DNA from: Eledone cirrhosa | Taxonomy: Eukaryota | Assembly: GCA_964016885.1 (NCBI GenBank) | Contig: CAXHJY010000269.1 | Coordinates: 1 to 64,000 of the forward strand | Direction: 5' to 3' | Length of the DNA: 64,000 nucleotides | Notes under the pieces: generated by a model | Told to the model about the DNA's origin: nothing | The model's database searches: none | The model's input: only the letters and a program-made list of their open reading frames with translations | Made by a program: the position numbers and the translations under genes | Shown here: piece after piece, positions 11,996 to 32,740 of the stretch | Layout: each line of letters starts with the position of its first letter | Position numbering within the stretch: position 1 is the first letter of the stretch

Positions 11996-12243
11996 CATGA
12001 AAAAAAAAATATATATATATATATATATATATATATATATAAATAAATGAACATAAATATATATATATATATATATATATATATATATATATATATATGT
12101 GTATATAAAAAAGAACATATATTTATATATGTATATATATATATATATATATATATATATATATATATATATATATATATATATATATATATACATACAT
12201 ATATATATATATAAGATCAAAAGATGGTTAAAGGAGTTCCATG

Positions 12244-12314
12244 TATTTTATTATGCGCATTTCAAAAACAAACATCATCATGCAATAATATTTGTGTTTT
12301 CATCAGATAAAACA
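12244..12314 (-). ncRNA. Type-I hammerhead ribozyme within a ~200-bp island (12212-12408) between TA tracts
   Basis: Minus strand reads tgttttat-CTGATGA-aaacacaaata...tgtttgttttt-GAAA-tgcgca-TA|ataaaata. 8-bp stem I, palindromic stem III, predicted cleavage between 12252 and 12251. Confidence 0.8.
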
Positions 12315-12830
12315 GGAGGACATGATATGAAGGCTAAAAAACACTTGTGGATAGTGCAGTTTTAAATCAAGCATTGCTTTATTGTACTACAATAAAACTC
12401 ACCTCCTACATACATATATATATATATATATATATATATATATATATATATATATATATATATATATATATATATATATATAAATATATATATATATAAA
12501 CATACATACATATATATACATACATATATATATACATACATATATATATATATATAAATATATATATACACATAAATACATATATATACATATATATATA
12601 TATATATATATATATATATATATATATATATATATACATACATATATATATATATACATACATATATACATACATACACACATACATATATATACATACA
12701 CACATATATATATATATATATACATACATATATATATCTATATATATATACATACATACATATATATATCTATATATATATATATATATACATACATACA
12801 TATATATATATATATATATATATATATATA

Positions 12831-13380
12831 CATGATAGCTGCCCCCGCGTTATCGTGTATGGCCATAGCACGATATACCATTATTAATAATTATAAACAG
12901 GGCGGTGGATTGGCAGTATAGGTAGGGGGTCGGACGCCATGCTTTGCAGCACAGTTACGTCCCTTTGCGGTCTGAGTTCAAATCCCACCGAGGTTAACTT
13001 TCATCCTTACGGGGTCCATAAAATAAAGTACCAGTAATACACTGGCATAATTGGTGACCTTGTGCCAAAAGTAGAAACAATTATTAATAATTATTAATTA
13101 AATTTATCGTGCAATGCCTGTGCATGAAGTTATTTTTTAAAGTGAGGAAAGACTGTTCATCAAGCCAATCCCATTCTCTGAGCGACAGTAGCTATAACCC
13201 GAAAATAAGAGAAGATAAACAGCATCGGTAACTACTGGGTCGCAGGTTTTATATCGGTGTTATCCTAGTTTCCTGAGTTGCCTTCTCCTAGAAAAATGTC
13301 CTGGCAAATGGTAGGGTTCCTTCACTACCAGTGATTTAACCGCGCGATCAGTTGCCCAGTCCGACTATTTCTATGTCCCC
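12831..13380 (-). mobile_element. Diverged RTE-derived non-autonomous element interrupted by a SINE
   Basis: Minus strand has CTAGGAGAAGGCAACTCAG (RTE 5'-UTR-like motif) and an RTE-like 3' end ggccatacacgataacgcgggggcagctatcat followed by TA. Confidence 0.5.
12901..13083 (+). mobile_element. tRNA-derived SINE with Nin-type central domain
   Basis: A-box-like tggcagtataggtagg, B-box gagttcaaatccc, then ctttcatccttacggggtc.ataaaataaagtaccag and an ATT tail. Confidence 0.8.
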
Positions 13381-13464
13381 GCGCATATATATACACATGC
13401 ACCCATGTATATACAAGTATACATAGAGAAATATATATACATGTGTATATACATATTTACACAC

Positions 13465-28770: not shown

Positions 28771-28939
28771 ATTAAATATATATATATATATATATATATA
28801 TATATATATATATATATATATATATATATATATATATTTATATATATATATGTACTATCCTAGGTATCGAGTACTCTGTTGAGTAGTGGTTTATATATAT
28901 ATATATATATATATATATATATATATATATATATATAAT

Positions 28940-31570
28940 GAAAAATTGAACAGGGACAGGACAGAGAGGCAGTACAATAAATGTTTATTAAATTCACGCT
29001 CAGGAGAGTGGGGTGTAGGTGGGGGACGACGTTTCGGGCATAAGCCCTTCTTCAGGTGAGTAGTGTGTGGGAACAGAGTTCAAAGGGTGTGTGGGCGAGT
29101 GGTGGAGAGACATATAGCGAAAGGAAACGGTGCGAATGAAAAATTAACAAATAAAGACAAAAAATATAATAAATAAAAATAAAGCATGATCAAAATACAA
29201 GGAATGAGAAAATTTAAAAATAAAGGCATGATCAAAATAAACTGAAATTAAAAGGGGGGTAAACAGGTGGTGGAGGGGTGTGGGGTGAGTAGAAGTGGTG
29301 GCGGGTGGAGTGGGGAGAGGGAGACGGGGTGTGCGAGCGGGGAGGGCTGAAGGTGGTGTGTGTGGTTAGGTGTGCGTGTGTGTGTCTGTGTGTGTATGTG
29401 AAAGTGAGGGTTGGAGGAAGAACGGGGTTGCATGTTCAGGAAGGTGTGTTTGGGGGGTGGTTTTGTGGGTCGGAGTGTCGGTGCGTGTGTGGATAGGGGG
29501 GTGGGGGGAGAGGAATCAGGAGGTTGAGGGTGTAAATTTTTGGTGGAAAGCACGTGTGTGTGGTTTAAGCGTGTTGTGGGTGTGGGTGGCGTGCGGAGAA
29601 AAAAAATGTTTGGGAGGTGTGTGTGTGGGTCAGTTATATAGGTGATGGCGTAAGAGGATGGTTGAAAAGTTGGCAAGTTCCACGGATGTTTGGAGATTAG
29701 GTTAGAAGTCAATTTCGCGTGTGGGTAATCCAAGAAGCGGTGGTCGGAAGAGGAGAGATGTGGGGTGCTCGCGCAACAGGAAGTGGTCAGCAGTGGGAGT
29801 GCTGTGGTCAGTTGGTGCTGAGAGGTGGTCGGAAGGGCATAGCAGCAGTCGGTGGAATGGTAGGGAGGCGAGGATGGGTAGGTGTGAGAGTAGGAGTGAG
29901 GAGGGTGTGTGTGTGTGTGTATTAGTAGGGGTGTTAGTGGGATGAGTGAGTGCGGAGTGGGGAGAAAAGGGTGTGTGTGGTTCTATGGAGGGAGTGTGGT
30001 GTACTGGTGTGTGTGTAGTTTGGTGAAGAGGTATTAGTGGGTGTTAGTATACGGGAGGTGGGGAGGGGTGGAATGCAGGTGTGAGTGAGGGTTAGTGGTG
30101 GTAGGGTGTGTAGAGTTGGTGGTGTACGAGGGTGTGTGGGTACGTGTGCGTGGGGTTGGGGGGTGTTAGTGATGTTAGTTGCGTGAGGGGTGGGTGGTGT
30201 AAGTGGGTGCGTGTGTGCGTGTGATAAGGAGGGGGGAGAAGGAGAAGAGGGGAGGGAAGGGATGTTAGTATGTTAGTTGGGGAAGGGTGGTCAGATGAGG
30301 GGTGGAGTGGAGGTGTTAGTATTGTTAGTGTGGGGTGGGCGGTGAAAAGGAGGGGTGTGTTAGTGGTGTTAGTGGGGGATAAGTGTGGGGGGAGGGGGGC
30401 GGTCGAACGCTAAAGGAATAAGGGTGGGGAGTTCAGGCCGGGGGGAGTGTGGGTCTGTAAGGTGAAGATAGTGCGTTGTTCGACCGTAAGGCGATGGGCG
30501 GGTGTTCCGTGGCACTGGAGTAGGCCACAGACTGTGAGATGGCGTGCGGAGTGTCCAGGGCCACCAAAGTGGCGGGCGATGGGGGAACTGCCCCCGAGAC
30601 GAATATCCCGGAGGTGCTCCGTGACTCGGTCCGCCAGGCGACGCCCCGTCTGTCTGACATAAGTCCGTAGACTAGGTTGGAGGAGGTGCAGCGGAAGGCA
30701 TGCCGGACCGAGAGAGAGTGGCCGTTGGGACCCTGGAAGGTGGTGGTGTTGGTGATGTGGGGACAGGTGTTGCAGCGGGGCCTAGAACAGGGGAAGGAAC
30801 CGGGGGGACCAGAGCGTGGGTTGGGGGGTAGGGAGCTGTGGACGAGGAGGGTGCGGAGATCGCGTGCGCGTTTGAAGGAGGGGAGTGGTGGGGTTGGGAA
30901 GATGTGGGAGGTGGAGGGGTCGGACTGGCGGCGTCGGAAGAAGCGGCGGATGGTGCGGTGGAGGGGTAAGGTGGAGGGGTGGTAGGTGATGGGGAAGGGG
31001 AGACGGTGGGTAGGTGTGCGGTGGCGTGGGGTGAGGGTGGTGGAGCGGGGCATAGCACGGGCGCGGATGAGAGCGGTGTAGACGAGAGAGGGGGGTAACC
31101 TCTGCGGATGAAATGGCTGACTAGGGAAAGGGCCTGGGACTCGAAGTCAGCATCACGGCTACAGAGGCGGCGGATCCTGAGAAGTTGGGAGTAGGGAATG
31201 GAGAGTTTAGTGTGGGTGGGGTGGGAAGAGGTGAAGTCGAGGTAAGAGTGGGAGTCGGTGGGTTTGAAGAAGGCGGAGGTGACGAGGGAGTGATGGGAGG
31301 GGTCGAAGGCGACGGAGATGTCTAAGAAGTGGACGTGGGTGGTGGAGATAGAGGTGGTGAAGTGGAGGGAGGTGTGGAAGGAGCAGAAGAAGGAGAGAAA
31401 GGAGTCGAGCTGTTCTCGGGTGAGGGTCGTGGCTCCGATACAGTCGTCAATGTAACGACCGTACAGTTCGGGCGTGGGGCCGGTCTACTGGGCAAAGATT
31501 TGGGCCTCAACATGGCCAACAAAAAGGTTGGCATAGTTCGGGCCCATTCTTGTGCCCATGGCTACCCCCG
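28940..31570 (-). mobile_element. GC-rich Penelope-like element, 5'-truncated in the RT
   Basis: GVAMGTRMGPNYANLFVG...YGRYIDDCIG, FKPTDSHSYL, CSRPRCNTCPH...CTSSNLVYG (Zn-linker/GIY-YIG). Long C/A-rich 3' region. Confidence 0.88.
29025..29058 (-). ncRNA. Minimal (dimer-type) hammerhead motif at the PLE 3' end
   Basis: Minus strand reads cac-CTGAAGA-a-gggc-ttat-gccc-GAAACGTC-gt. Palindromic ACGU stem III, very short stem I. Confidence 0.7.
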
Positions 31571-31728
31571 TATATATATTTGGTAATATTTAGTGTTCAT
31601 ATATATATATATTTATATTTGGTAAGAACTGGTGTTCATCAGAGCCTAGTAATCGCTCTGTATAATCAGTTTCTGATTATTACTGGAATTCTATAAGAAT
31701 CCAGTCTCTATAATTTTCGGGAGAGGTC

Positions 31729-31770
31729 GGCTCTGATGAACACCAACATTGTGAAACAGATCTGTCAGCT
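31729..31770 (+). ncRNA. Type-I hammerhead ribozyme within a ~330-bp island (31613-31934)
   Basis: ggct-CTGATGA-aca-ccaacat-tgt-GAAA-c-agatct-g-TC|agct. GUC triplet, predicted cleavage after C31766. Confidence 0.8.
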
Positions 31771-32740
31771 TATTTCCCTTCCTTTGCTTAAAAAAGAAGT
31801 AAGTGACATAGTCACTGCTTTAAAACAATAGCGCTAGGTCTTCAAACTATTTTTAATAAAACATACAGTATATTACCAAATATACTATACATGTTTTCAT
31901 GTATACATCGCTATTTCAGAGCACCAATCGTAATTTATATATATATATATATATATATATATCATCAGTAGCTATAACGTTTGATGGGAAACCTAAAACA
32001 TGAAAATGAATGCTTTAGTGTCGAAGTTCTTTGAGATGTGTATTTTGCAAAGATTTAAATACATTTCTATATTGTCAACATCAGAAATTCAAGTAGCCAG
32101 AAATTAGATCAGTGTCTCCAATGTTATACGTAAACTGGTATATAACTACCATACAGTTTGTCTTCATTTTGGCAATCATCGATGTAGAGATATCGACTAA
32201 TGCCGGTTTGGTTTTTGCTGTCACTTATGTAAAGGCTGGTATTTTTATGTTACTTTTCCAAATACTAGCTAACACGCATAAGCTTTCTTCACGTTTTCGA
32301 ATGAAACTATTATTCATTCCATTTTTTTTTCTCAGCATTCTTACCATTAATACCTTTTAAACATTACATTTCGGCGTCTTTTCTCACGGTATGTGTTGAG
32401 TGACTGGCTGTCTTTAAGAAAAGCAAACTACTTCACTAAAATATCGGACACATGGGACAGCTGCTGACAGTTAATGGACTTCAATTAACGGTGTCAGCAG
32501 TTCCTGCGAAGTATTTTTCGGAGGAGGGGATCTGACCTTGTCATTAATAAAAAATGTCTGTCTTCTTTGACATGAGGTCGTTCAATAATCAGGTTGCTCT
32601 CCCCACTACTATTTAGGTCATGAGACATAAATAAAGACATGATGGTACATATATTTTATATTTAATATTAACAACCTCGTGCGTGCTATTACTAACTGTT
32701 TTAGCAGTAATGTTTACAATATATATTCCATTCACTAGAG

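Follow-up and report, generated by a model that had tools for sequence, protein, structure and literature searches.

The Hydra clade of the Penelope-like elements (PLEs) carries canonical hammerhead ribozymes, targets (TA)n repeats and has an octopus member, Hydra-1_Obim; its defining protein motifs are RWK, DKT, CxCX5C, CxxC and CxH (Craig et al., 2021; PMC8557442). In its account of PLE insertions, the same study describes a signature of a partial tandem, an adjacent inverted 5'-truncated copy and a tail at one end, and names the origin of the tandem and inverted structures, as well as the bias towards microsatellites, as open. PLE hammerheads also occur in isolation: most motifs are single, with a probable relationship to truncated PLEs, while pairs on opposite strands at distances of 100-700 bp and, separately, palindromic forms of helix III have been reported, and the G10.1-C11.1 pair is termed highly conserved (Cervera and de la Pena, 2014; PMC4209133). 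Animal retrozymes that are not of the long terminal repeat type (non-LTR retrozymes) have been proposed to derive from PLEs (Cervera and de la Pena, 2020, PMC7229834; Li et al., 2026, 10.64898/2026.07.22.740005). For one PLE protein, it was found that both strands of AT-rich DNA are nicked and extended, that reverse transcription starts at two internal sites bounding the genomic tail, and that unprocessed RNA is preferred, cleavage not being needed in vitro (Frangieh et al., 2024; PMC11167929); the main text of that paper does not say that each strand is coupled to one start site. In this study, five hammerhead motifs were analyzed in a stretch of 64,000 nucleotides from Eledone cirrhosa (GenBank assembly GCA_964016885.1, contig CAXHJY010000269.1, positions 1 to 64,000, forward strand), hereafter the window. 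It is very probable that four of them are end pieces of protein-coding Hydra-clade PLEs situated in TA repeats, and that the fifth belongs to a 316-bp gene-less repeat likely to have been copied in trans by a Penelope-type enzyme.

A sequence-only reading of the window had described tiny hammerhead islands without open reading frames (ORFs) at five places, here islands 1 to 4 and a segment starting at 24836 (island 5). Both strands were scanned over the 45,564 non-microsatellite bases of the window with a descriptor of the type I core (CUGAnGA, GAAA and UH with pairable stems I-III). Only five matches were obtained, all of them complete and at the named places: 12306-12252 (-) in island 1, 16061-16118 (+) in island 2, 20048-20151 (+) with a long loop II in island 3, 31733-31766 (+) with a palindromic stem III in island 4, and 24945-24896 (-) in the 24836 segment. 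In 100 first-order Markov resamples the mean was 0.07 matches and the maximum 1, a comparison that rules out a chance origin of the motifs. The TA tracts were likewise seen at the island edges, and on both sides of islands 1-3. Only the core is common to the five families; the stem sequences are unrelated and the best cross-match between islands is 13 nt, so that the described lack of relationship outside the core holds. The core is retained in most near-full copies (67/69, 46/48, 89/95, 55/57 and 18/24 in the five families). By sequence, the five motifs are real type I hammerhead cores, with putative self-cleavage.

These motifs are nevertheless atypical hammerheads. The Rfam hammerhead models, which the sequence-only reading had offered as a check, matched none of the five islands at E<=10 in one scan per island, and in a Rfam scan of the whole window the best 150 of 433 rows comprised only TA-driven miRNA matches. 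Minimum-energy folding recovered the full three-stem shape for the motif at 16061, roughly so for that at 31733, and stems I and II for that at 12306, whereas the hammerhead shape was not recovered in the folds of the motifs at 20048 and 24945; the fold z-scores of the five ranged from -2.45 to +0.36. Two features set the five apart from the isolated PLE hammerheads described by Cervera and de la Pena (2014). Stems I-III are complete in all of them, and the pair closing stem II deviates in four; this pair is the canonical G10.1-C11.1 in one motif (24945), A-U in two, and an A.G mismatch in two (window positions 16068/16106 and 20055/20139) that is fixed across the copies of both families. The earlier estimate of about ten hammerhead-like motifs was too generous: of the 17 CTGAnGA words in 12212-31970, five are complete cores, two are minimal motifs belonging to the termini of other PLEs (18705, +; 29055, -), one is a half core in the inverted arm of island 4 (31642, -), and nine have no hammerhead structure. 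An extra minimal motif lies at 7726 (-).

The origin of islands 1-3 became apparent from their genomic relatives. Every island is multi-copy, as had been expected, with 1227, 1599, 109, 2661 and 1693 first-look candidates for the five (109 for island 1), of which 40 were scored per island. Most matches divide each island into two parts, a long sense part and a short part that in the relatives lies reversed and slightly downstream. In island 1, the sense arm (12209..12371, -) is the 3' part of a pseudo-LTR (pLTR) with the hammerhead, ending at a fixed site A and 98% identical to the pLTR of a full-length copy (L161); the inverted stub (12371..12411, +) comprises the last 41 nt of a 92-nt leader/tail, ends at a fixed site B and is 100% identical to the L161 tail end. 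Island 2 belongs to a second family and consists of an inverted tail stub of about 70 nt (15976..16048, -; 92% to the tail of L164) and a pLTR 3' end with the hammerhead (16051..16152, +; 98% to the 3' pLTR of L164). In island 3, of a third family, the inverted stub (20002..20042, -) is the last ~40 nt of a 146-nt leader/tail, 100% identical to that of L154, and the hammerhead-bearing pLTR 3' end (20040..20205, +) matches the pLTRs of L154 and L156 at 99.4% over 166 nt; thus nucleotides 37-202 of the island match the pLTR end, and nucleotides 1-39 correspond, in reverse complement, to the leader's far end. In these parents the leader sits between pLTR and ORF.

The full-length parents of islands 1-3 are located elsewhere in the genome, outside the window. 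L154 and L156 have open ORFs of 784 and 785 amino acids between two direct pLTRs, and those of L161 and L164, also between pLTRs, match residues 9-778 and 9-772 of the Hydra parent protein, respectively, each interrupted by a frameshift or stop. The order in the full-length parents is 3' untranslated region (UTR), hammerhead, site A (the pLTR end), a tail of 77-146 nt, site B and ORF. An island accordingly starts with (TA)n, continues with the 40-70 nt that precede B, in reverse complement, and with the 100-170 nt that precede A, and closes with (TA)n. In the 784-amino-acid ORF and its relatives, a reverse transcriptase (RT) with YRDD is followed by a C-terminal endonuclease of the GIY-YIG type (Y-x-Y[IFV]G). 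The three parents carry RWK and DKT motifs (RVRWK/ADKT, RMRWK/SDKT and RLRWI/SDKT), and the CxCX5C linker, together with CxxC and CxH in the endonuclease, is found in 4/4 elements when that in the window at 24836-28560 is included; the pLTR hammerhead and (TA)n insertion likewise hold for all four families. In addition, the parent proteins track Hydra-1_Obim across its shown length when compared by eye. A protein search with the parent returned 846 relatives, which among the 120 matches listed are about 33-42% identical and unnamed, except for one 'hypothetical protein'.

On the basis of the motifs and this comparison, the parents of islands 1-3 are assigned to the Hydra clade, and islands 1, 2 and 3 are read as an inverted tail stub joined to the pLTR 3' end of protein-coding Hydra PLEs. 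The likeness to the clade as described by Craig et al. (2021) extends to RWK, DKT, CxCX5C, CxxC, CxH, a hammerhead in the terminal repeat and (TA)n insertion. The differences are that four other families with other hammerhead sequences are present here, that the units are 3.2-3.6 kb long instead of <3 kb, and that the tails are 77-146 nt instead of 30-40 bp.

The fourth Hydra family lies within the window itself. The 24836 segment is read as the 3' end of a 5'-truncated Hydra element of about 3.7 kb (24836..28560, -), and not as a stand-alone island: tblastn pieces, interrupted by SINE-like (short interspersed element-like) inserts, cover residues 257-778 of the parent protein in order, with RT remnants at 28547-27450 (-) and an endonuclease remnant at 27031-26630 (-), followed by the 3' UTR and the pLTR with the hammerhead. 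This element is collinear with another genomic locus (L169) from 28140 to 24851 and carries YRDD, CxCX5C, YIG, CxxC and CxH, the RWK/DKT region being missing through truncation. No tail stub was found for it within 24-29 kb. The PLE origin of the hammerheads and the TA targeting that had been proposed are correct. The suggestion that neighboring PLEs mobilized the islands is not supported: the PLEs at 16.3-19.0 kb and 29.0-31.6 kb showed no similarity to the protein of the Hydra parents in tblastn, are of other types and carry different hammerheads.

An alternative, close to the solo pLTRs or retrozyme-like units of the sequence-only reading, is that the islands represent several minimal hammerhead families that propagate themselves. 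In loci selected by likeness to the islands, the outer ends are indeed fixed, but the internal junctions differ between copies: distinct junctions were found in 4/4, 10/10 and 12/14 cases for the families of islands 1-3, respectively, three identical junctions among the 14 representing one tandem duplication, and most junctions show an overlap of 1-5 nt. Furthermore, insertion sizes in samples taken in genome order are continuous from about 30 bp to >4 kb and include stubs without a hammerhead core, and the islands are 98-100% identical to protein-coding parents. In one pattern-limited subfamily of the island-1 family, short (8/25) and long (8/18) copies have their commonest pLTR allele in common; this comparison showed no separate lineage of short copies. 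The fixed 5' end of many island-1 copies (27/40) speaks for minimal elements, in that transcription and renewed copying would in principle be open to short copies whose start is intact, and the minimal-element reading does hold for island 4. Because the junctions differ and short and long copies share their commonest allele, islands 1-3 are not taken as self-propagating minimal families, an explanation that is largely refuted for islands 1, 2, 3 and 5 by the variable junctions, sizes and parents, and to which, for the islands as a group, we assign only a very slight probability. Instead of a fixed ORF-less head-to-tail unit, these four have variable junctions, continuous sizes and protein-coding parents, and are judged from sequence not to be retrozymes. 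Four of the five thus map to the ends of autonomous PLEs, three to a Hydra pLTR plus tail and one to the end of a truncated copy, and of the proposed ORF-less minimal families that of island 4 is left. In the island-1 family, at least 7,225 exact tail ends were counted, far above the 109 candidates of the DNA search, and palindromic stubs of about 420 bp are the commonest short form.

Island 4 is of a different nature. Its main arm (31651..31934, +) spans positions 23-316, almost the whole unit, of a repeat of period 316 that lacks an ORF and contains a hammerhead, and is 88% identical to the unit at locus L117; its short inverted arm (31613..31650, -) has an internal deletion and the half core (CTGATGA at 31642), as seen from self-matches of positions 2-13 and 18-34 with 272-261 and 133-117. 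The longest stop-free frame in the unit is 52 codons. Exact head-to-tail junctions number 147 in the genome, and a head-to-tail junction is present in 50/72 distinct insertions; among 70 exact cores there are three same-strand pairs of tandem complete cores 316-317 bp apart, the window copy being a single unit. The unit has two fixed ends 26 nt apart, and both ends were resolved in 27 of the 72 insertions, 23 of them A+B, two A+A and two B+B. No shared longer body was found in the flanks of 60 loci, and where Hydra fragments occur close to a copy, they are set apart from it, inverted or located after a break. In size and content the unit falls among retrozymes (ORF-less, within 150-450 bp, type I hammerhead), and its AT-rich 316-bp length and head-to-tail copies resemble those described for animal retrozymes. 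It differs in having mostly one or two units, PLE-type inverted arms and a 26-nt tail instead of long arrays. The family thus resembles a non-LTR retrozyme inserted with a PLE end signature, and the unit was likely copied in trans by a Penelope-type enzyme. At one locus (L092, 1-1215), a 31-bp internal piece of the unit forms a tandem array of at least 39 copies adjoining a full unit, a minisatellite born from the element.

The two fixed ends provide an indication of how the insertions arose. Resolved two-ended insertions nearly always have one pLTR (A) end and one tail (B) end. In the island-3 family, 24/32 exact B ends in the first 233.6 Mb of contig C1 pair with an A end as a single insertion of about 0.1-4.4 kb, and in genome order neither the 100 A ends nor the 32 B ends sampled included an inverted pair of like ends (A-A or B-B). 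For 60 consecutive island-1 A ends, the opposite end was B in 28 and A in none, 20 extended past the fetched stretch and 12 were without a clear second end; 11/18 consecutive B ends had A opposite. Where the arms of one insertion overlap, their divergence is 0.8%, compared with 3.3% between insertions (26 pairs), and minority variants are common to both arms in 78% of cases within and 18% between insertions (26 pairs); the corresponding divergences for island-1 arms are 1.9% and 3.2% (31 pairs). The likeness of the arms suggests that one RNA was the source of both. In addition, the resolved A arms of island 1 often share a stop point: 27/40 terminate at reference positions 393-398, a window of 6 nt some 70 nt ahead of the core. 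We infer that this 5' cluster marks the transcription start, and the bases there resemble a putative initiator element. The whole hammerhead would then be frequent in stubs because it fills the short gap between the likely transcription start and site A, and not because the stub needs it.

Pairing of A and B ends and arms that stop at a likely transcription start both fit priming at two fixed sites on an uncleaved RNA, a model that draws on the in vitro work with another PLE cited above. The endonuclease would nick both strands of the TA tract, and the two nicks would prime reverse transcription on a single, mostly uncleaved RNA, one of them at site A and the other at site B. Synthesis of both cDNAs would end early, often by running off the template's 5' end, which would lie a short way upstream of the hammerhead, and the two products would be joined at 1-5 nt of microhomology. 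We give an even chance to the full proposal, in which the islands are frozen minimal PLE integration products, a protein dimer provides one fixed start site per nicked strand on one uncleaved RNA whose 5' end closely precedes the hammerhead, and insertion of the 316-bp unit follows this two-site chemistry as well. The insertions share with the PLE signature of Craig et al. (2021) an inverted arm and a one-sided tail, and their two fixed ends and AT-rich target match the two RT start sites and the substrate of the PLE protein; unlike in the usual signature, no inverted repeat is visible in the islands because both arms are too short to overlap. One literature search on twin priming and inverted Penelope structures did not find a two-strand priming model for PLEs.

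A number of results weigh against this interpretation. The parent protein is not recognized by Pfam, which gave no family for the parent ORFs or for the window remnant, or by a PDB search, in which no match was below E 0.66, and the clade placement relies on motifs and a by-eye comparison. Exact A and B ends are unequal in number across the genome, with 1,204 site-A+TA against 471 site-B+TA ends in the island-3 family and 423 site-A against 7,225 site-B+TA ends in the island-1 family; the imbalance may be due to variants missed by the exact patterns. The A+B rule is not absolute, with two inverted B-B pairs among the first 100 island-1 B ends and the A+A and B+B insertions of the 316-bp unit, and 31/70 A ends of the island-3 family had no inverted arm (40/70 having been picked among ends without an exact B partner). 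The identity of the arms can also be explained by gene conversion or sibling RNAs, and the 5' cluster is weak in the island-3 family, where 13/52 arms stop within -18 to +1 of the core. For island 4, a non-exhaustive search of 29 other loci and 60 loci (overlapping sets) found no ORF-bearing parent or partner enzyme.

Near-identical arms, and near-symmetric junctions, which are common (e.g. L216, L227, L231 and L309), could also result if a single cDNA primed at B folded back and was copied to A, the islands then arising by later deletion within the palindrome. However, in islands 1-3 and in many sampled insertions (e.g. L223, L226, L232, L237 and L240) a long A arm is paired with a B arm that ends short of A, and one arm could then not serve as template for the other unless every case had its own deletion, which makes this route improbable.

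Another alternative is a scheme in which the hammerheads are active and cleavage sets the templates, as linear or circular monomers or through rolling-circle copying, at least for the 316-bp unit. The conservation of the cores in most near-full copies agrees with such a scheme, the head-to-tail junctions of the unit fit a circular or multimeric template, and single arms end at the predicted cut in L311 and L201. Arm ends, however, are not concentrated there, with 0/40 in the island-1 family and 1/52 in the island-3 family, a weak negative as control positions were not included, and a pile-up of arm ends as a fossil of cleavage is unsupported by these counts. The pattern of a break at the island-1 cut had 86 genome matches in a family of >7,000 ends, and 13/30 inspected were stem III deletions, again with no control position for comparison. 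Moreover, four of the five motifs are without G10.1-C11.1, and cleavage was unnecessary in vitro for another PLE (PMC11167929). On balance, templates set by cleavage seem doubtful, though less so than the fold-back route. The stem III deletion in island-1 relatives is a recurrent one of 3 nt (13/30 loci, L322-L349).

The studies cited above already cover single hammerheads left by truncated PLEs, the presence of Hydra elements in TA repeats, and retrozymes linked to PLEs; four new Hydra families, one new gene-less unit and a testable priming model are added here. The families are young and abundant, and their two exact start sites, together with the likely 5' end of the RNA and the open ORF of 784 amino acids, allow strand-by-site priming to be tested directly; the 316-bp unit is a natural substrate for tests of trans-mobilization of retrozyme-like RNA. 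If correct, two-site priming would account for the inverted-plus-tail signature of PLEs, which has long lacked an explanation, and the 316-bp family would be genomic evidence for retrozyme-like units inserted by PLE enzymes.

Several other features of the window were recorded. A PLE of another type at 16290-18990 (+) has a CX4CxxC linker, a 5' palindrome and the minimal hammerhead at 18705, and is probably Neptune-like; a second copy lies at about 7680-9820 (-), and a near-complete relative is present in L178. The PLE at 29000-31570 (-) is 5'-truncated, with RT and endonuclease remnants and the minimal hammerhead at 29055, and island 4 is positioned at its truncation point. An uninterrupted ORF of 124 amino acids at 38941-39315 (+) begins like a signal peptide and has the cysteines of the insulin family, although its match to Pfam Insulin (E 7.4e-5) is above the cut-off; it is likely an insulin-like peptide gene of the host, or an exon of one, among the repeats. 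By eye, 22720-23500 and 23720-24506 form an inverted repeat pair of about 780 bp around a TA/CA-rich spacer, with no hammerhead. A repeat of 380-600 bp, also without a hammerhead core, occurs in TA tracts in both orientations at 14040-15055, 15360-15745, 19110-19700 and 61100-63300 (period 409), and a 14-kb degenerate TA/TATG array occupies 47050-61010.

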